A stretch of DNA of 64,000 nt, from the NCBI GenBank assembly GCA_002319885.1, contig DCFT01000079.1, positions 18,658 through 82,657 on the forward strand, given 5' to 3'. Position 1 is the first letter of the stretch, and each line of letters begins with the position of its first letter. Positions 842 through 35,800 of this stretch are shown piece by piece. Source of the DNA: Bacteroidales bacterium UBA1797 (GTDB lineage Bacteria > Bacteroidota > Bacteroidia > Bacteroidales > VadinHA17). Both the position numbers and the translations under genes were made by a program. The notes beneath the pieces were generated by a model that saw nothing but the letters and a program-made list of their open reading frames with translations, was not told the origin of the DNA and did not search any database.

Positions 842-3688
842 CTATTTTCTTTTTACAGTTACACCCTTCCCTGAATATGAAATAATGCTATCAGGCGTGA
901 CCAAAGGATTATAAGGAACGGGGTTATCTTTGTTAATAAATATAATGTTAAATGTACGTGATTTCAACATACCTGGAAAATCTCCTTCCCGTTCACTGAT
1001 TTTCAGTTCTTTCCTGGCCTCGCTATAGTTGAAACTAATATTGCTGGACGATCCTTTTTCATAGTTGTAATTTGTTCCTTCATCTTCATAAAGCTTAAAT
1101 CCACAGTCCTTTCCGGTATAAACCAGAACTGTCAGGGGGTCAGCAGGCTTCTCAGCTGTATATTCTATTTCAGGTCCGACAGGCAAAATTGACCCCTCCC
1201 TCACATACAAGGGTATTCTCTCATAAGGGGCTTCAACACTTGATTTCTGTCCTCCGTTCAGATATTTCCCCGAATAGAAATCGTACCATCCGCATTCTGA
1301 AGGAAAATACACATCCCTGATTCTGGATTTATACCTATAAACCGGCGCCACCATCAAAGAGGGTCCGAACATATATTGGTCACTAATATTATTTACCTCT
1401 TCATCGCCGTTAAAATCCATTATTAGTGGCCGCATTATCGTGTAGTCACTGAAATGGGTCATCCCTGCAAGAGAATATATGTAAGGCATCAGTCTGTAGC
1501 GCAGTTTGTCATAATAAACCATGCTCTTATATGCAGAGTGAGTCTCAGGCGAAAGATTGTAGATTTCCCGGAAAGGGTACTGGCCATGACTACGGAACAG
1601 CGGACAAAACGAACCAAACTGAAACCATCGGGTATTAAGTTCTCTCCATTCTTCCATGTCCTCCGATCCTTCTGTAGCTCTTGCATACCTGTTCTCAACA
1701 CAAAACCCTCCAATATCCATTGTCCAGTAAGGTATTCCTGAAATTGCATAATTCAGGCCGGCCGCGATCTGAGCTTTCATATCCTCCCATCTTGTTCCTA
1801 TATCACCGCTCCATGTAGCAGTTGAGTATCTTTGCAATCCCGCAAAACCTGAACGGGTAAGAAGGAATACCCGTTTATCAGGATCAACACTGCGCTGACC
1901 ATTGTATATAGCCATAGCGTTCATAAGAGCGTAAGTATTGAAGTATTTTGTCGACGGACCAAGTGCAGTAGGGGTTGAAAGCAGTTTGCGGTATTCGATG
2001 CTTGCATTAGACTCAATATCAGGTTCAGATGCATCCATCCACCACGCGTCAAACCCTTTCGAATAAAGACGATCCCTGATCTGTTTCCAGAAAAGGTCCC
2101 TTGCACCCTGACTGTAAGGATCATAGAATGAACCTATATATCCTTTACCTATCCAGTCTCTGATACTGTCTTTTACTGCCTGTTTGTACATCCATCCATG
2201 GCGATCAAACGCTTTATAGTTGTCTGTAGTAATATAAAATTTAGGCCAAACGGAGATCATTATCTTTGCATTGAGCTTATGAACCTCGTTGACCATTTCT
2301 ACAGGATCAGGAAAAAACTTCGGGTCAAACTCATGTGATCCCCACGACTGAACAGGCCAGTATGACCAATCCAGTACAATATTATCAATTGGAATATTTC
2401 TTTTCCTGTACTCCTTTACGACATTTACCAGCTCTGTCTGTGATTTATACCGTTCACGGCTCTGCCAGTAACCCATCGCCCATTCCGGCATTATCTGAGC
2501 CTTACCAGTAACCTCGCGATAACCACTTATTACTTCATCGAGGTTATTTCCATGAATAAAATAATAGTCAATCTGGTCACCCATCTCCGATGTCAGTGTA
2601 AGGTTACCCTGTTGCGTTGGACTTACCGGACTAAGCGCTTTTAGCCCGAGATAAGATGTGCCTCCATCGGGTTTCCACTCAATCCTAATTTCATAACGCT
2701 TTCCCTTCTCCATGTTTTCGCTGAACTTATAAGTGTTCGGATTCCATGCTGTTCTCCATCTCTCAGGTACTACAAGTTCATTGTTTATAAACAGTTTTAC
2801 ATAACCTGCATAATATAATTTGAAATGAAACAAACCAGTCTCCTTCGGCTCAATTTTCCCTACCCAAAATACATTTGATCTGTCAAGAGGAACAGTCTGA
2901 GGTAAGTTTTTTATAGTTGAAAGATTTTCATAATCAATAGAGGATTCTTTCCGTTGAAGAAAAATTTTATTTGTATCTGATAAATCGCGATAGGTTGCAG
3001 TCAGGCCTCCTTCATCTCCTTTATTGTCATACAGCCTGAAAATATCAAGATTTGAATAATCCCGTGGATCACCAAACCTTGTAAGCGAATAATTGTCCCA
3101 CAAAATGCCATAGTTTCGGTTTGAGACTATGAACGGGACAGAGACTTTTGTATTATACTGATACAGAACCTCATTTAGTCCCTTATAATTAAACTCATCT
3201 GACTGATGCTGACCCAGTCCGTAGAAGGCCTCATCAGATGGTGATTCAAAAACCTGCTGAAGTGTATAGCCGCTTGTTCCCTCCACGGTTATAGGCGTAA
3301 ATGAATTCCCTCCGCCTTTCTGTTCTTTTACTATTTCATTGTTATAAATATCCCTGAAGATGATCTGACCTGTGATCAATGAGACTATGGCTTTTATTTT
3401 GGAAGTCGAGACTACTATATTGTCTTTACCAGTTGTAACAGAAAATGAAGGGATTGCAGCAGGTCTCTCAACTGCAACGAGACTTTTCATATCTGAGATT
3501 TCCCCTGAAGGAGTTGCAATAACGTGAATGATCTGATCATTGATCACCTCGAGCTTGATCAGATGTGCTTTTTGCCCGGTCTGATCATTGAGTTTAATCA
3601 GAACTCCATTATTGGTTTTCTCCCAGGATTTATAAGATGAAGAAGATATCAGCAGAAAAGCAGCTGTTGCGAATAATAGTCTTTTCAT
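842..3688 (-). CDS. GH31 alpha-xylosidase/alpha-glucosidase with PA14-like insert, secreted
   Basis: 948 aa with a signal peptide. GH31 motifs [12 protein letters not shown] (nucleophile Asp region), [26 protein letters not shown] (acid/base region) and YWTMDIGGF. Inserted PA14-like segment ([22 protein letters not shown]...[13 protein letters not shown]), as in PUL-encoded alpha-xylosidases. Confidence 0.85.
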
Positions 3689-4068
3689 TTTTATAATTAT
3701 TAAAAATCCTTTACAATTTCAATAAGATGCTGCAGTTATGAGAGAGTTCAATACTATTAATTCCTTCAGAAATTTAAAGACTGTAAATCATCTATTTGTT
3801 TCCTATTATTCTTCGTCTCAATTGCTTTAATATGAAAATATACTAATATACCTCAAAAAAATTCTTTTTTAACCCTTACTTTGGATAAGTACCTGTTTTA
3901 TAAATGCCTGCAAAAAAGATGTATATAGCTACCCAGAATATTTCTGAAGATAAATAATCAAAATATTTCAGACATTTTTTCTCAATCATGCCAGGTCTCA
4001 TCGAATTAACAAAACTATGATTTTTATTGAATTTCCCTGCCTGGAACTCTTAGAAACAGTGGTTTTAT

Positions 4069-4965
4069 TTATTGGTAATATTCCAGTTTTCGGGTAATAA
4101 TGTCGTCGATTTCGCTATTAATATATTCCTTACGGGAAGTCCAATTGTTATACTTGTCATAAGTATACACAAAAATATGTTTTTCTATTTTCTTATCAGG
4201 CACATAATTAACAAGTTTCAAAATTGTATTTAATTGTTTATCATATTGGTAGGTAGTTTTCGAAATTAATTCATTCTCCCCATTATAAAAACAAGCTTCG
4301 TCAACCAGCCTGTTAGAAAGATAGGTATATGTTGATTTTTTAATGAGACTATCTTTTAGTGATAAATACAAAATTTCCACTTTAAGCCCCTTTTTGTTAT
4401 ATGTATTTTTTAGTTTCCAATGCTGATGAAAGACAGAATCAATATGCAGTTCTTCTATAACATTATTTTTATCATCATATCTGAAGAAAATCCGTCCCTG
4501 AATTTTATCTTTTTCATTTAAAAATCTTCTTTCAATCTCATTCATGTTTGCATCATATTCATATTCAGTATCAGAAATTAATCCTCCAAAGGGATTCAGA
4601 AGTTTTTCTTCAATTATTTTATTATGTTCATTGTATGAATAATGCAAAATTTCTGACAAACTATCTTTCAGAACATAACAAGAACGTGTCAGTTTTTGAT
4701 TCCCGGCATTGTATTCATATTCCCATCTTCGGATCAGAGAGCCATCGGGATTAAATGAAGATTGCTTTTGAATAAAACCGTTGGGTTTAAATACAAGATA
4801 TGTAGTATATTTTCCAGTGTTTGAATAGTCTATTTCAGAAACTGTTTTAACGGCCCCATTTAATCTCCACTCCTTCAATTCATTATTAATAACCTTATTG
4901 CTATTATTACAGGAAGAAGCAATTTGTGCAACTATAATGAATCCGTAAATATGAGCTCTGTTCAT
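4069..4965 (-). CDS. Lipoprotein built from about 8 degenerate YD/RHS-like repeats; function unknown
   Basis: ORF 4069..5004. I prefer the ATG at 4965 (MNRAHIYGFIIVAQIASSC, lipobox-like). Recurrent Y-x-Y-(D/N)-x-x-N-x-(I/V)-E units: EYEYNAGNQKL, HYSYNEHNKIIEE, EYEYDANMNEIE, FFRYDDKNNVIEE, TYQYDKQLNTI, VYTYDKYNNWTS. More AT-rich than its neighbours. Confidence 0.6.
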   Translation of the reverse strand: MNRAHIYGFIIVAQIASSCNNSNKVINNELKEWRLNGAVKTVSEIDYSNTGKYTTYLVFKPNGFIQKQSSFNPDGSLIRRWEYEYNAGNQKLTRSCYVLKDSLSEILHYSYNEHNKIIEEKLLNPFGGLISDTEYEYDANMNEIERRFLNEKDKIQGRIFFRYDDKNNVIEELHIDSVFHQHWKLKNTYNKKGLKVEILYLSLKDSLIKKSTYTYLSNRLVDEACFYNGENELISKTTYQYDKQLNTILKLVNYVPDKKIEKHIFVYTYDKYNNWTSRKEYINSEIDDIITRKLEYYQ

Positions 4966-5052
4966 AATATATTTTACTCTATGAATGATGCTTTTAACAT
5001 GCAATTGATTAATTAACCTTCATGTTTGAGCTTCAACAATCTTTTTAAAAAG

Positions 5053-5080
5053 AAACCGTCTCTAAATATAGAGACGGTTT
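5053..5080 (-). terminator. Perfect 11-bp stem hairpin with T-runs on both sides (intrinsic terminator after the SusE-position gene)
   Basis: aaaccgtctct (5053-5063) / aaatat / agagacggttt (5070-5080). On the reverse strand it is followed by ctttttaaaaag. It lies 48 nt downstream of the stop at 5128. Confidence 0.6.
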
Positions 5081-5127
5081 TTGAAAGGACTAAAAAGCTA
5101 CAAACCTAAAAAAACAAATCATCTATT

Positions 5128-5916
5128 CTAATAATTAAAACCTTTGCGTTTGAACATACCGATATTATATTGTCCGTACTCATGGAGAGACAATTCGTCA
5201 GCTGTCAGTTTGGTTATATGATACTTACCATCGCTGGGTGTAGGCCAGGGGAAAGTAACACCGTTAAGGACTTGTATGCCACTGTAACTAACTCCTCCAT
5301 TTACATAAGGTGCAATTACGGTGAAGAACCCCTTGGCAATGCTGCCGTCACCCTTTTTATGCTGAAAGTGAGCGCCTCCCACAAGATCCATAGTAACCTC
5401 ATCATTAAAGTTCAACCATGAATTACCTGCAGAGGCATCCATAGTCCACCAGGCAGGTGCGGTACAGTTTTCAGGTCCATTGCCACCAATAATACCGCCG
5501 GGAATGTCAAGAGCCCATACCCATGTTTGACCCGATCCACCATTGGTTAATCCTTTCCATGCCGGATCTTTGTCAAAAAAAGCGTCATCATTTGAAGCAA
5601 TTGTGAAAGTTGTCGAATCGGTAACTGTACCACCTGCACAAAAAGCAGTATACTTTAACGTGAAAGTACCAGCAAATGGTATATAAATGGTATCAATTGC
5701 CCTGTGTGAGGTACCGGTTCCCCAATCCCAATAAATAATAGCGCCGTTTGTATTGTTCTCCAGGATCACCGTGTTTGAACCTGCAGTTGGTTGAACAACT
5801 GCAATATTCACCTGGTCTGCCGTAAGAACAGGCCCCAGTTCATCTCTGTTCTCCATGGTTTGGCATGATGTCATAATCAATGCTAAACCCATCAAAGTAT
5901 AAAAACTTTTTTTCAT
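5128..5916 (-). CDS. PUL surface lipoprotein in the SusE/SusF position
   Basis: 262 aa with lipoprotein signal MKKSFYTLMGLALIMTSCQ. Sits immediately downstream of SusD. Gly/Thr/Trp-rich, beta-sandwich-like composition. No catalytic motif recognised. Confidence 0.6.
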   Translation of the reverse strand: MKKSFYTLMGLALIMTSCQTMENRDELGPVLTADQVNIAVVQPTAGSNTVILENNTNGAIIYWDWGTGTSHRAIDTIYIPFAGTFTLKYTAFCAGGTVTDSTTFTIASNDDAFFDKDPAWKGLTNGGSGQTWVWALDIPGGIIGGNGPENCTAPAWWTMDASAGNSWLNFNDEVTMDLVGGAHFQHKKGDGSIAKGFFTVIAPYVNGGVSYSGIQVLNGVTFPWPTPSDGKYHITKLTADELSLHEYGQYNIGMFKRKGFNY

Positions 5917-5941
5917 AACATTTCATTTTAGAGATTAAACA

Positions 5942-31722: not shown

Positions 31723-32976
31723 TTACAATTTCAATAATGGCAGAATAATGAGAGTCAGCGATAACCCTGTCAGAATTATTACAGCGCTCCAGCCGATGAT
31801 ATTCTGTGATAAATTGTTTACATAGGTACCCATGATCTTTTTATTGTTTATCAGCAGTATCATACTGACAAGAACGACAGGCAAAAGTATCCCATTTAAA
31901 ACCTGTGACCACACAGAGATCTCAATAAGCGGGGCATTTGGTATCAGAATAATAAGTGCAGAAATAATCAGGATCCCTGTATAGAGAGTATAAAACTCCT
32001 TGGCTTCGTCCCATTTCTTATCGATACCGGCTTCGAAACCAAATGCTTCGCAAATATAAAAAGCCGTAGCCAGAGGTAATATAGTTGCCGAAAAGACAGA
32101 AGCCACAAACAGACCGAATGCAAATACCTGGGAGGCCAGTGCCCCGGCAAAAGGTTTAAGCGCAAGTGCCGCATCCTTTGCTTCATTTATCTGAATTCCG
32201 TTAGGGTGTAATGTTGCACCGCATGCTACCATAATAAAGAAAGCGACTACTATTGTTGCTACGCATCCTACTGTTATATCAACCAGGGTATACTTGTAAT
32301 GTTTCATTTTCAGACCCTTCTCAATTACAGTTGATTGCATATAAAACTGCATCCATGGCGCAATCGTTGTTCCGACGAGAGCAATAACCATTGCCAGGCT
32401 ATTGGTATTCATTGCGAGTTGGGGATGTATTATTGAAGAACCTATTTCGCTCCACTGTGGGTGGCTCATCAATGCTGAAACCACATAAGTTAGCAATGAA
32501 ATACTGAATATCAGGAAGATACGTTCCACAATCTTGTATGTTCCTTTAACAACCACAAACCACACTATTATAGCAACCAGAGGAACTGAAATATATTTGC
32601 TGACACCAAAAATCTCCATACTTCCTGCAACACCAGCCAATTCGGTAGTTGTATTACCTATATTTGAAACCAATAATCCTATGAAAATAAAAAAGGTGAT
32701 CTTTAATCCTGCATTTTCCCTGATCAGGTCTGAAAGGCCCTTCCCTGTCACTATACCCATACGCGCGTTCATCTCCTGAATAACCAGCAAAACAATGAAT
32801 GAAGGAATCAGCGTCCATATCAGACCATAACCATACGTTGCCCCTGCTACTGAGTATACAGCAATACCGCCGGCATCATTATCCACGCTGCCGGTAATTA
32901 TTCCGGGACCAAGGATTGCAAAAAAGATTGCGGCCTGTTTAAGAAGCTTTTTTACGTTGAATGTTGACTCTGCCAT
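31723..32976 (-). CDS. NRAMP-fold transporter with NRMT-type (Mg2+-type) substituted metal site
   Basis: 417 aa polytopic protein. TM1 reads GPGIITGSVDNDAGGIAV (canonical DPGN becomes DAGG). TM6 reads VGTTIAPWMQF (canonical A-x-x-M-P-H becomes T-x-x-A-P-W). Confidence 0.8.
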   Translation of the reverse strand: MAESTFNVKKLLKQAAIFFAILGPGIITGSVDNDAGGIAVYSVAGATYGYGLIWTLIPSFIVLLVIQEMNARMGIVTGKGLSDLIRENAGLKITFFIFIGLLVSNIGNTTTELAGVAGSMEIFGVSKYISVPLVAIIVWFVVVKGTYKIVERIFLIFSISLLTYVVSALMSHPQWSEIGSSIIHPQLAMNTNSLAMVIALVGTTIAPWMQFYMQSTVIEKGLKMKHYKYTLVDITVGCVATIVVAFFIMVACGATLHPNGIQINEAKDAALALKPFAGALASQVFAFGLFVASVFSATILPLATAFYICEAFGFEAGIDKKWDEAKEFYTLYTGILIISALIILIPNAPLIEISVWSQVLNGILLPVVLVSMILLINNKKIMGTYVNNLSQNIIGWSAVIILTGLSLTLIILPLLKL

Positions 32977-32987
32977 AACACTGACAT

Positions 32988-34262
32988 TTATCTTCTGTTT
33001 GTCCTTCTTTTATGTGTCAGATCTTCAATGACATCATCAATTACAACCATTCCCTGTAACTGATTTTTCTGATCAACCACCGGTATAGCCAGCATGTTAT
33101 ATTTCGAAACCAATTCAGCAATTGCGCCTACTTTCTGGTCGTCGAGAAGATGAAGTGGCTCTGATTTCATAATGCTGCTGACACTCATATTGGGTTCTGA
33201 TACCACCAGATCGCGAAGGTTAAATGATCCGATCAATTCTTCATTGGTTTCAATTACAAACATATTATATAGTTCAGCCGACTCGGGCTTTTTTGATCTT
33301 AGTTCAACAAGCACTTCTGCTACAGTAGTTGTGGCGCTGAATGAAAGATAATCGGTTGTCATTATACTTCCAACAAGGTCATCATCATACTCAAGTAGTT
33401 CTCTGATCTCCTGTGAAGTTTCCATGTTCATCTCTTTCAGCAATATCTCCACCTTGTCGTCTTCCATCTCATCGAGGATATCTGCTGCCTCATCTGCAGG
33501 CATCTTTTCAAGCACATCTGCTGCTTTGGCTACGGGAAGGTTTTCAAGGATATGAATCTGAGCATTTGGTTCAAGTTCCTCAAGAACATCTGCAGCTTTT
33601 TCTTCATCAAGCGAAGCGAATACCGACATACTTGATTTCCTGTCCAGATCCTCCAGTATATCAGCTATATCGGATGGGTGCAGGGTATGAAGTTTAGCAT
33701 AGCTCTTTGATAACCTGATATTAAGATTTGAATAGTCGATAGCCTGAACATCATCCCACAGGATAAATTTCGCCGGAATATTTATTTTGAAGATTGAAAG
33801 CAATTTCTTGATCGGCAAGGCGATTCCTATCCTTCGCAAAAGTCCCTCAATCCCTATATCAACAGCTATTGCAAAAGTACCGGCAGGAAGTGTTGCTATC
33901 CTCACATCGTTGACTCTTACAAGCTTCCGGCCATTCATATCGACTATTTGTTTGTCGAGGATTGTTTCAACAAGCAACAGTCCATTATTCACTTCTTCTG
34001 TTGTAAGCTCTTTCAGCTCTGTACAGGTTACACTTATTACTTCTCTGGCTTTGGTAACCCTGAAACTCTTAAAGGAATAAAACCTTATTTCCTTATTTAT
34101 TTTAAGTCTGACACCGGTTATAAGCTGCTGGTTCGGGTCGTTGTTTCCCGAAGGCATAGTGTTAACAAGTAAATCTTTGATTATTCCAATTGCGTCACCA
34201 TCGGCACCAAAGACTTCTTTTCCGATTATTCCGCTTAAATAAAACGTTGTGAGTGATGTCAT
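32988..34262 (-). CDS. Soluble PRC-barrel + MgtE_N + CBS-pair protein (MgtE cytosolic sensor without a pore domain)
   Basis: 424 aa with no hydrophobic span. Acidic helical repeats SDIADILEDLD, AADVLEELE, AADVLEKMPADEAADILDEMEDD. Two CBS-like motifs (IMTTDYLSF..., IMKSEPLHL...LAIPVVDQKNQLQGMVVIDDVIEDL). Ends 11 nt upstream of the transporter gene. Confidence 0.8.
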   Translation of the reverse strand: MTSLTTFYLSGIIGKEVFGADGDAIGIIKDLLVNTMPSGNNDPNQQLITGVRLKINKEIRFYSFKSFRVTKAREVISVTCTELKELTTEEVNNGLLLVETILDKQIVDMNGRKLVRVNDVRIATLPAGTFAIAVDIGIEGLLRRIGIALPIKKLLSIFKINIPAKFILWDDVQAIDYSNLNIRLSKSYAKLHTLHPSDIADILEDLDRKSSMSVFASLDEEKAADVLEELEPNAQIHILENLPVAKAADVLEKMPADEAADILDEMEDDKVEILLKEMNMETSQEIRELLEYDDDLVGSIMTTDYLSFSATTTVAEVLVELRSKKPESAELYNMFVIETNEELIGSFNLRDLVVSEPNMSVSSIMKSEPLHLLDDQKVGAIAELVSKYNMLAIPVVDQKNQLQGMVVIDDVIEDLTHKRRTNRR

Positions 34263-34399
34263 GTCACCTCCTTGCTTTAACTGAAAAAGAAGGAAGTAAC
34301 CTATACTACCGGTTTTCCTCCTTGATCAGAGTTAAGATTATAATATTCGCCGGGCCGTCGTCCATTAAATTTTTAAAATTGATTTCGCGAACAAAAGTA
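34263..34399 (-). promoter_or_regulatory. Promoter box plus structured leader of about 120 nt (terminator-like hairpin and SD-like box sequestration candidate)
   Basis: On the reverse strand: TACTTTTG -7 box (34392-34399); AAGGAGG (34317-34323) pairs with CUUCCUU (34290-34296), with inner AACC/GGUU pairing, followed by CUUUUU (34284-34289); a second AAGGAGG (34267-34273) sits 4 nt before the ATG. Confidence 0.4.
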
Positions 34400-34576
34400 T
34401 ATCTCATATCCTTACTTTCCAAATAATCCAACACGAATTTATTAAACGGAAGAAGAAAGTTTTTAGAGCAAGGAATATGTAGGTTTTAAAGTTGAATAAA
34501 AGTTGTGGAATTTGCTTATATTGGTTTTATATTAGCCTAAAAGCAAAGTATTTCTTCCGTATTATTCTTTTTTTAC

Positions 34577-34584
34577 TAAATTTG
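34577..34584 (+). promoter_or_regulatory. Candidate -7 promoter box for the SPT-like gene
   Basis: TAAATTTG (perfect TAnnTTTG), 32 nt upstream of the GTG start at 34616. Confidence 0.35.
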
Positions 34585-34615
34585 GAACCGATTTAACATC
34601 ATATTAAACAATATA

Positions 34616-35800
34616 GTGGGACTTTTACAAGATAAACTCTCAGGTTATGATGCCCCTCAGAAAGCCATGCAGGCAGGCATCTATCCCTATTTCAGGGCTA
34701 TAGAATCCGAACAGGATACTGTAGTAATTATAAACGGGAAAAAGGTTTTAATGTTTGGTTCGAACAGCTATCTCGGGCTCACAAACCATCCAAAAGTTAA
34801 AGCTGCTGCGAAAGCTGCCATTGACAAATATGGTACCGGGTGTGCTGGTTCACGATTCCTTAACGGGACTCTTGATATCCATATAGAACTGGAAAACAAG
34901 TTGGCCCAACTCGTAAATAAGGATGCTGCTTTATGTTACAGTACAGGATTCCAGGTGAATCTTGGTGTTGTATCATTACTTGCAGGACGCCATGATTATC
35001 TCCTCCTGGATGAACTCGATCATGCCTCAATTATTGAAGGCAGCAGGCTTTCTTTTTCTAAAGTTCTTAAGTTTGCCCATAACGACATGAATTCTCTTAA
35101 GAATAAACTGAAGCTCTGTCATAAAGACCGGATTAAACTGATTGTTGTTGATGGTATTTTTTCTATGGAAGGCGATCTTATTAACTTACCTGAAGTTGTA
35201 AAGCTTGCTGAGCACTATGGTGCATCCATAATGGTCGATGATGCACATGCTCTCGGCGTAATAGGGAAAAACGGATCAGGAACAGCCTCTCATTTCGGAC
35301 TGACTGACAAAGTTGATCTAATAATGGGCACTTTTTCTAAATCATTTGCTTCTCTTGGCGGCTTTATCGCTTCCGACAAAGAAATCATAAATTTTATCAA
35401 ACATAATTCCCGATCGCTGATATTCAGTGCTAGCATGACGCCTTCAGCTGCAGCTTCCGTTCTTGCATCCATAGAAATAATGGAGAATGAACCGGAAAGG
35501 ATTAAACATTTATGGGATATGACAGCACTTGCGCTTAATGGTTTCCGCTCTAATGGTTTCGACACCGGGAAATCTGAAACGCCTATAATTCCTCTTTTTA
35601 TCAGAGATGATATCAAAGCTTTACAATTGACTCAGAATCTACTTGAAGACGGAATTTTTGTAAATCCTGTTGTATCTCCTGCCGTACCTAAAGAAGATAG
35701 CCTGATCAGGTATTCTCTTATGGCGACACATACAAAAGAACAGGTGGAAATTTCTATTGAAAAGATTACCAAAGCAGCAAAATCACTGCATATATTATAA
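34616..35800 (+). CDS. spt: Alpha-oxoamine synthase of the serine palmitoyltransferase / cysteate-acyltransferase type (long-chain-base synthase)
   Basis: 394 aa. GTG start per the ORF track; the first ATG is at 34667. MGLLQDKLSGYDAPQKAMQAGIYPYFRAIE, FGSNSYLGLTNHP, GTGCAGSRFLNGTLDIH, and PLP-lysine block GTFSKSFASLGGF. The N-terminus resembles Bacteroides SPT as I recall it. Confidence 0.82.
   Translation: MGLLQDKLSGYDAPQKAMQAGIYPYFRAIESEQDTVVIINGKKVLMFGSNSYLGLTNHPKVKAAAKAAIDKYGTGCAGSRFLNGTLDIHIELENKLAQLVNKDAALCYSTGFQVNLGVVSLLAGRHDYLLLDELDHASIIEGSRLSFSKVLKFAHNDMNSLKNKLKLCHKDRIKLIVVDGIFSMEGDLINLPEVVKLAEHYGASIMVDDAHALGVIGKNGSGTASHFGLTDKVDLIMGTFSKSFASLGGFIASDKEIINFIKHNSRSLIFSASMTPSAAASVLASIEIMENEPERIKHLWDMTALALNGFRSNGFDTGKSETPIIPLFIRDDIKALQLTQNLLEDGIFVNPVVSPAVPKEDSLIRYSLMATHTKEQVEISIEKITKAAKSLHIL

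Follow-up and report, generated by a model that had tools for sequence, protein, structure and literature searches.

A conserved Bacteroidales operon of a soluble MgtE-like protein and an NRMT-type transporter, with a predicted leader peptide switch

What does the cytosolic half of an MgtE channel do when it is encoded without a pore, directly before the gene of an unrelated carrier? The question is raised by two genes in a 64,000-nucleotide (nt) stretch of contig DCFT01000079.1 of Bacteroidales bacterium UBA1797 (assembly GCA_002319885.1), called here the window. One encodes a soluble MgtE-like protein of 424 residues, the partner (32988..34262, minus strand), and the other an NRAMP-fold transporter of 417 residues (31723..32976, minus strand) of the NRMT (Nramp-related Mg2+ transporter) type. 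The spacer between them is 11 nt long (32977..32987, minus strand) and the junction reads TAA-ATGTCAGTGTT-ATG. The list of open reading frames (ORFs) and the junction sequence bear out the positions, the gap and the common strand given by a first-pass annotation of the window; because the partner lies 5' of the transporter on the minus strand, it is the first gene of the pair.

The annotation knew of no experimental description of such a two-protein system. Its claim to novelty does not stand: Shin et al. (2014, PLoS Genet, PMC4072509) described "mgtE-nramp operons" and found that the gene before nrmT in most cases encodes the cytoplasmic domain of MgtE. As it was published in 2014, the pairing itself adds nothing new, and the locus belongs to a known operon type, mgtE-like/nrmT, of which it is an unexceptional Bacteroidales example. 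Shin et al. speculated that the partner serves "cytoplasmic feedback regulation of transport" or acts as a chaperone. No follow-up of the partner after 2014 was found in the literature searched; the later NRMT and MgtE papers and reviews covered there do not take it up, and the structural paper on EleNRMT, the NRMT protein of Eggerthella lenta (PMC8806188), does not mention it. What is new here is the derivation of the module from an MgtE with PRC domains, the set of Mg2+ sites that it has kept and lost, the presence of the partner beside orthologues of the crystallised transporter, and a predicted leader switch. The leader, which is conserved and apparently undescribed, is the most notable of these. 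That the whole is a two-gene Mg2+-uptake operon, with feedback of the partner on the NRMT protein in trans and a leader peptide switch, is a reading that we consider about evenly balanced.

The MgtE-like partner and its Mg2+ sites

Pfam finds three kinds of domain in the partner: a PRC match (residues 6-35, E = 1.8e-7, 31.5 bits against a cut-off of 21.2), MgtE_N (residues 194-295, E = 2e-26), and two CBS domains (E = 7e-15). Such family matches are strong and lie far outside what chance would give. It finds no match to PF01769, the five-helix membrane domain with the pore Asp. The NCBIfam mgtE equivalog profile is covered only over positions 21-252 of 450, so that its membrane half is absent, and no membrane span is seen, since no 19-residue Kyte-Doolittle window reaches 1.6 (maximum 1.49). 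For these reasons the partner is an MgtE-like cytosolic fragment and not a channel, and the earlier description of a protein without a hydrophobic span but with PRC, MgtE_N, and a CBS pair is confirmed by Pfam and hydropathy.

The AlphaFold2 model of the partner, which was built on 68 diverse relatives, is confident (predicted local distance difference test score 91.7). It contains two beta domains (residues 5-80 and 94-135), two helices, and a disordered linker (residues 176-186); the helical N domain comes next, then the CBS pair, and last a short helix at the C-terminus. The best Foldseek matches of the model are MgtE cytosolic domains, namely 2yvy (Mg2+-bound), 8gpv, and 2oux, with target-normalised template modelling (TM) scores of 0.83-0.88. 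Beta domain 1 (residues ~5-80; 34023..34250, minus strand) contains the Pfam PRC match and the modelled strands at 5-80. Beta domain 2 with the two helices (residues ~94-157; 33792..33983, minus strand) carries the motif LDKQIVDxxGRKVVRVND ... RGLLRRLG ... W, the best conserved in the partner family, among whose invariant or nearly invariant residues are D103, Q105, D108, R116-D119, D135, R143, R144, and W169. In one relative (P0122) the Pfam PRC match falls at 94-132, that is, on the second beta domain. The MgtE_N helical domain (33378..33683, minus strand) and the CBS pair (residues 297-414; 33021..33374, minus strand) follow, and the protein closes with a basic tail, THKRRTNRR (32991..33017, minus strand), where pore-fused relatives enter the acidic plug helix (EE..ED). 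The partner is a complete cytosolic module of two PRC-type beta domains, MgtE_N, and a CBS pair, ending exactly at the start of the plug helix.

The Mg2+ sites of T. thermophilus MgtE (TtMgtE), as listed in PMC5882242, were mapped onto the partner through a HMMER alignment to 2yvy, and their conservation was counted in the 68 diverse relatives. In the MgtE_N domain, E59 (Mg7) corresponds to D225, acidic in 60 of the 68 relatives; D91 (Mg4) to D257 (66/68); and D95 (Mg6) to D261 (67/68). In the CBS pair, D247 (Mg4) corresponds to D410, acidic in 64/68, and D250 (Mg5) to E413 (52/68). D226, the other residue of Mg5, is not kept: it is N389 in the partner and the position is acidic in 17/68 relatives. 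The pore site Mg1 has no counterpart. The claim that the partner holds the whole Mg2+-sensing gate of MgtE needs correction: residues of Mg4, Mg6, and Mg7 are kept, but the plug-helix sites Mg2 and Mg3, like Mg1, are without counterpart.

The partner ends in ...DLTHKRRTNRR, and the tail is net-positive in 55/68 split partners. In the C-terminal tails of the alignment, many split partners end in a recurrent basic motif of the LP..WKKRLPR or LPRWKKILKR type. Such a motif could be a membrane- or transporter-docking peptide in place of the plug helix.

The NRMT-type transporter

The second gene encodes a protein with multiple hydrophobic spans, and the Nramp family is confirmed by a full-length Pfam match (PF01566, E = 1.1e-93). 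Among structures in the PDB, the closest is EleNRMT (7QIA, E = 8e-114), with MntH/DMT structures at about 1e-24 (best MntH 6e-24). BLASTP against the 7QIA chain gives 46% identity across 408 residues. The Mg2+ site of EleNRMT is defined by Asp55, Gly58, Thr224, Ala227, and Gln379, and a Trp replaces the first histidine of helix 6b (PMC8806188). All six diagnostic residues are found in the window protein: D34, G37, T203, A206, W208, and Q358 equal EleNRMT D55, G58, T224, A227, W229, and Q379. Hence the NRMT binding-site signature is present, with the Asp of helix 1 kept and its Asn changed to Gly, Ala to Thr and Met to Ala in helix 6, and a Gln in helix 10, and the proton-pathway histidine of helix 6b is replaced (W208). 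The motifs of transmembrane helices 1 and 6, GPGIITGSVDNDAGG (residues 23-37) and GTTIAPW (residues 202-208), read in the translation as they had been read before. The site motif of the first, DNDAGG (D34, G37; 32866..32883, minus strand), is identical in 74 of 75 related loci, and that of the second, GTTIAPW (T203, A206, W208; 32353..32373, minus strand), in 69 of 72.

These comparisons support the placement of the predicted protein in the NRMT clade and not in the Mn/Fe MntH clade, in agreement with the first-pass annotation. An ordinary Mn2+/Fe2+ MntH whose NRMT site is an alignment artefact is extremely improbable. Such a reading could point to the weak best matches in NCBIfam, which are MntH-type models, and to relatives named "Mn transporter" in their sources, but the NCBIfam scores lie far under the cut-off (137.7 bits against 430), the match to EleNRMT exceeds that to MntH structures by the margin given above, and the site motifs are conserved in about 70 relatives. 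At the sequence level, a classical MntH identity is excluded by the EleNRMT match together with the site residues. The substrate of the window transporter is nevertheless only predicted, since EleNRMT also carries Mn2+ (PMC8806188) and one member of the group studied by Shin et al. imported Mn2+.

Origin of the partner module

A search with the partner among 1.84 billion cluster representatives returned 567 relatives at E <= 1e-30. Most are 400-450 residues long and align over their full length, including the N-terminal region; about 18 of the best 150, at 585-651 residues, are longer. In the longer relatives (e.g. P0172, P0175, P0197, P0217) the PRC, N, and CBS unit is followed by an acidic EE..ED plug segment, and a divergent MgtE membrane domain, PF01769, is found in four of the seven that were scanned. 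The best-conserved motif of the PRC region is common to the split and the pore-fused forms. In PRC-bearing MgtE proteins of ~600 residues (e.g. P0175, P0197, P0217) the partner region 1-415 aligns at 29-33% identity, PRC motif included; these proteins differ from the window partner in that they continue into the acidic plug helix and the divergent PF01769, whereas the partner ends in its basic tail. No paper on a PRC-bearing MgtE subtype of ~600 residues, or on a PRC barrel combined with MgtE, was found in the literature searched.

Judged by these alignments, the partner corresponds to all of the cytosolic half of an MgtE subtype with PRC domains, severed where the plug helix begins. Because the pore-fused forms carry the PRC part too, this part is not an NRMT-specific addition. 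The suggestion of the first-pass annotation that a sensor has been uncoupled from its own pore fits the finding of the same module fused to an MgtE pore elsewhere; the change may have been a split or a fusion. A module of PRC, N, and CBS domains that occurs either fused to an MgtE pore or beside an unrelated carrier is a natural test of the portability of a gating domain.

Conservation of the pair

The gene neighbourhood was surveyed in one genome per species with 12 query sequences, and the best 80 of at least 574 relatives were inspected. The 80 loci are 49-87% identical and all of the Bacteroidota type, and in 78 of them the sequence extends far enough past the partner gene to be informative. 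Of these 78 loci, 75 have a co-directional NRMT gene after the partner, at a distance of about 10-190 nt. A gene for a 450-residue protein of PRC, MgtE_N, and CBS domains also precedes the transporters of Eggerthellaceae that are 90-92% identical to the 7QIA chain, and it ends 3-4 nt before their start codon. The pair of partner and NRMT is a conserved unit in Bacteroidota and Eggerthellaceae. Since the surveyed loci are uniformly of the Bacteroidota type, the evidence for a spread over several phyla comes from the look-ups in Eggerthellaceae and from Shin et al.

Three loci (L060, L079, and L080) keep the partner and the leader without an NRMT gene. Two of them, L060 (5276-9275) and L080 (1517-3300), have other DNA downstream of the partner, and L079 (5276-7100) has a 24-residue NRMT remnant, 75% identical, followed by a 560-residue ORF on the opposite strand, which suggests a recent loss of the transporter.

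Two Eggerthellaceae loci with the orthologous actinobacterial operon, L081 and L083, were viewed over 2300-5920. A tRNA gene lies upstream of the partner, at ~240 nt in L081 and ~630 nt in L083, and a gene for an Rrf2-family regulator converges on the 3' end of the transporter gene. In these two operons neither an M-box nor a uORF (upstream ORF) leader of the Bacteroidales type is seen. Two other loci, L052 and L058, come from metagenome-assembled genomes labelled Verrucomicrobiota; their partner and NRMT proteins are 59-60% and 78-79% identical, respectively, to those of the window, and their upstream DNA is unrelated, GC-rich, and without the leader. Horizontal transfer or a mis-binned contig could account for them.

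The operon leader

The ~125-165 nt before the partner ATG are 67-90% identical in most related loci. This leader (34263..34423 in the window, minus strand) lies upstream of the region covered by the first-pass annotation and is present in 74 of the 81 copies examined. M-box riboswitches precede many mgtE-like/nrmT operons (PMC4072509). Neither an M-box nor another Rfam family is found in the window at the gathering score, in 34200-34700 at E <= 10, or in eight related loci.

The leader begins with a putative promoter (34392..34423, minus strand) composed of TTTG (34423..34420), a gap of 20 nt, and TACTTTTG (34399..34392). The TAnnTTTG box is conserved at columns 17-24 of the leader alignment; TTTG / TAnnTTTG is the Bacteroidetes-type consensus.

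Downstream of the promoter-like pair lies a short uORF, MDDGPANIIILTLIKEENR followed by a stop codon (34306..34365, minus strand). In all 74 aligned leaders the uORF starts with M-D-[D/E]-x-P-A and continues into a variable tail, 9-25 codons in length. The first two positions of codons 2, 3, 5, and 6 are invariant or nearly so, and the third positions vary freely (at nucleotide 15, for instance, G in 34, T in 38, and C in 2 leaders). Variation of this kind implies selection on the peptide. The composition of the start is also distinctive, as three to four D, E, or P among residues 2-6 occur in 74/74 leaders and in 2.2% of the background ATG-initiated ORFs of the window. A reading of the invariant block AATGGACGA..CC.GCG as a riboswitch aptamer was rejected, since variation in the block is confined to every third base and the block is always the beginning of an ORF. 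In one related locus (L069, about 3880-4000) a variant uORF begins MEEGS, with the acidic residues kept and the proline lost; it could be a natural test of the need for proline.

Two hairpins are predicted in the remainder of the leader. Hairpin I (34281..34329, minus strand; proposed as the "ON" structure), identified by folding and by counts in the 74 leaders, contains the pyrimidine tract ACUUCCUUCUU and has a predicted free energy of -18.6 kcal/mol (z = -3.96). The position of its 5' arm differs between leaders: in the window it falls within the uORF, and elsewhere it can also coincide with the uORF stop or follow closely behind. Across the 74 leaders, 84% of cells are paired, as against 43-53% when the partners are slid by 1-3 columns, and compensatory changes occur in 12 of 12 pairs. 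Hairpin II (34263..34300, minus strand; proposed as "OFF") is formed when the same tract pairs with AAGGAGGUGAC, the arm directly preceding the gene 1 ATG at 34262. Folding of the full leader gives it as the structure of lowest free energy (-21.1 kcal/mol, z = -2.19), and RNAalifold returns it as well; 80% of its cells are paired in the 74 leaders, as against 46-58% for slid partners, and compensatory changes occur in 9 of 14 pairs. Since they have the pyrimidine tract in common, the two hairpins are, computationally, mutually exclusive. RNAalifold on the raw MAFFT alignment yields hairpin II only; hairpin I was defined from individual folds and then counted. The covariation score of the hairpins is reached by none of 500 shuffles, a control that ignores kinship and scores structures on the sequences from which they were derived.

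Directly before the ATG (34263..34274, minus strand) stands UAAGGAGGUGAC, a near-perfect extended Shine-Dalgarno (SD)-like element that is invariant across relatives. According to published work, ribosomes of Bacteroidia are "blind" to SD sequences, and rpsU is the one gene of F. johnsoniae with a strong SD. The main role of the invariant UAAGGAGGUGA may therefore be to pair within the leader; alternatively, it may couple expression to a particular state of the ribosome, and the SD-like element may link expression to ribosomes that lack bS21.

A scan of metagenomes for the leader pattern found at least 120 copies. Among the 120 matches listed, the partner gene follows 119 (113 by BLAST, six with a contig end or an early stop) and one is ambiguous downstream; the M-D-[D/E]-x-P-A start holds in these copies as well. 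None of the matches listed precedes another gene such as mgtE, corA, or mgtA, under a pattern that required the same SD element and would therefore miss divergent versions of the leader.

Proposed mechanism and alternatives

A mechanism that would join these parts begins with the partner. In it, Mg2+ at Mg4, Mg6, and Mg7 would still make the N domain close onto the CBS domain; consistent with sensing, the acidic residues of these sites are kept in 60-67 of the 68 relatives and the model superposes on Mg2+-bound 2yvy. The Mg2+-bound partner would then bind the cytoplasmic face of the NRMT protein, perhaps by way of the basic tail or of the conserved surface of its PRC part, and slow import, giving the feedback inhibition in trans that Shin et al. 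proposed in 2014. The trans-regulation suggested by the first-pass annotation is the same idea, and a reasonable one. The joint step, in which the partner closes with Mg2+, binds NRMT, and slows import, falls somewhat short of an even chance.

The leader would add control of expression. At low Mg2+, ribosomes would abort on the D/E- and P-rich N-terminal codons of the uORF, leaving hairpin I folded and the start of gene 1 open. At high Mg2+ they would translate as far as the uORF stop, which lies within the 5' arm of hairpin I, and so unfold that hairpin; the freed pyrimidine tract would pair with AAGGAGGUGAC by the start codon, and hairpin II would close the start region and turn expression off. 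In this form the M-D-[D/E]-x-P-A uORF would be an undescribed Mg2+-sensing leader, an independent and non-homologous counterpart of the enterobacterial MgtL, and with feedback by the MgtE module would give Mg2+ homeostasis in two layers, with the high-Mg2+ hairpin burying an unusually perfect SD-like element in bacteria that normally translate without regard to SD sequences. By analogy with MgtL this is possible, though we hold it tentatively, at well under an even chance.

Several observations weigh against the operon working in this way. When the Acidobacterium capsulatum pair was co-expressed in B. subtilis, the partner gave no further rescue, and C. acetobutylicum NrmT complemented without its partner (both PMC4072509); likewise, EleNRMT alone transports in proteoliposomes (PMC8806188). 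Natural fusions of partner and NRMT are absent among the best 150 partner representatives and the best 120 NRMT matches, and three loci, as described, dispense with the NRMT gene. In the partner itself, Mg5 is half lost, with N389 in place of an acidic residue, and nothing corresponds to E258 and D259 of the plug helix (Mg2, Mg3). The ion sensed and transported may not be Mg2+ alone, because the transporter of the A. capsulatum pair behaved as a Mn2+ importer (PMC4072509) and EleNRMT carries Mn2+. Finally, the leader model is built on predicted folds and on analogy, its covariation controls are of the kind noted above, and the effect of masking the SD is uncertain here, as Bacteroidia ribosomes are reported not to use it.

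Some of these points lend themselves to other explanations of the partner. It is rather unlikely that the partner regulates NRMT in response to adenine nucleotides, via the CBS pair, or to Mn2+, and not to Mg2+. The CBS pair is intact and ATP is reported to bind the CBS domain of MgtE (PMC5529423); in addition to the Mn2+ import by the A. capsulatum transporter, Shin et al. suggested that its partner may respond to Mn2+ (PMC4072509), and Mn2+ is a substrate of EleNRMT besides Mg2+. Yet the residues that are conserved are those building Mg4, Mg6, and Mg7 of MgtE, and the leader of the operon resembles a Mg2+-sensing leader peptide. Improbable, too, is a partner that is merely co-expressed with NRMT under low Mg2+ and acts on something else, for example another membrane protein or, through PRC, RNA or the ribosome. 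Such a role would suit the three loci with partner and leader but no NRMT, the co-expression without effect in B. subtilis (PMC4072509), and the fact that the most conserved region is PRC, which the pore-fused forms also have and which is thus not NRMT-specific; it sits poorly with 96% adjacency, gaps of 3-4 nt in Eggerthellaceae and 11 nt in the window, and a pair conserved across two phyla. The chaperone role offered by Shin et al. (PMC4072509), in which the partner would take or store ions as a cytosolic metal chaperone or buffer without gating transport, is quite improbable. Several apparent low-affinity acidic sites would be in keeping with it, but the cytosolic sites of MgtE, which bind Mg2+ in the millimolar range, serve as a conformational switch (PMC5882242), a single protein would be an implausible stoichiometric buffer of a millimolar ion, and docking is the role suggested by the basic tail and by a PRC surface that is strongly conserved.

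Experiments on the role of the partner have several handles: the residues of Mg4, Mg6, and Mg7, the basic tail in place of the plug helix, the invariant PRC motif, and the partnered orthologues of EleNRMT. If the uORF leader is real, Mg2+ sensing by "intrinsic ribosome destabilisation" (IRD) would extend beyond Enterobacteria, and one more of the rare SD-like elements would join the short list of Bacteroidia. If both layers act as proposed, Mg2+ homeostasis would be built from parts not known to work in this way.

Flanking genes

The genes around the operon are unrelated to it. One flank holds genes for a patatin-like lipase, an acyltransferase, and a sodium:solute symporter; on the opposite flank, genes for a class I/II aminotransferase and a short-chain dehydrogenase are divergently transcribed. 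The nearest relatives of the locus are in metagenome-assembled genomes of Bacteroidales and Rikenellaceae.

Comparison with known systems

The closest precedents are the mgtE-like/nrmT operons of Shin et al. (CA_C0685; ACP_2976/2977), which have the same two families in the same order and on the same strand and carry the same functional speculation. The C. acetobutylicum CA_C0685 operon is controlled by an M-box and its partner is split into two genes, whereas the window operon has a single gene for a 424-residue partner, no M-box, and a uORF leader instead. In addition, Shin et al. call the partner a "small protein" and make no mention of the PRC region of ~190 residues (PMC4072509).

The two proteins each have a structurally characterised relative. 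EleNRMT (7QIA/7QIC/7QJI/7QJJ) shares with the window transporter the 46% identity over 408 residues and the six site residues, and a partner gene stands beside its Eggerthellaceae orthologues; EleNRMT was studied alone, and Mg2+ transport by the window protein is predicted. The cytosolic domain of Thermus thermophilus MgtE (TtMgtE; 2YVY/2YVX) has the N domain and CBS pair in common with the partner, with a target-normalised TM score of 0.84 and with Mg4, Mg6, and Mg7 kept. Unlike TtMgtE, the partner has no plug helix and no transmembrane domain, has lost half of Mg5, bears an extra two-domain PRC N-terminus, and replaces the acidic plug by a basic tail.

For the leader, the comparison is with two Mg2+ sensors. 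The M-box (ykoK) is a known regulator of nrmT operons in Firmicutes, with the same position before the operon, but it is absent from the window and from eight related loci. The other is MgtL, the enterobacterial uORF of mgtA, which begins MEPDPT. Ribosomes abandon it within this stretch, and do so more at low Mg2+; abortion, which is aggravated by small side chains, selects between two exclusive leader structures. Like MgtL (and corL of corA), the window uORF is rich in D, E, and P in its first six residues, matching it in composition (D, D/E, G/D, P, A) and in position, and it is associated with predicted exclusive structures before a predicted Mg2+ importer. The two differ in phylum and are without sequence homology (MEPDPT... 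against MDDGPA...); moreover, MgtL acts through Rho-dependent transcription termination, whereas the window leader is predicted to mask the start region of gene 1. The leader thus resembles an MgtL-type, or IRD, Mg2+-sensing leader peptide, with a predicted function as a switch.

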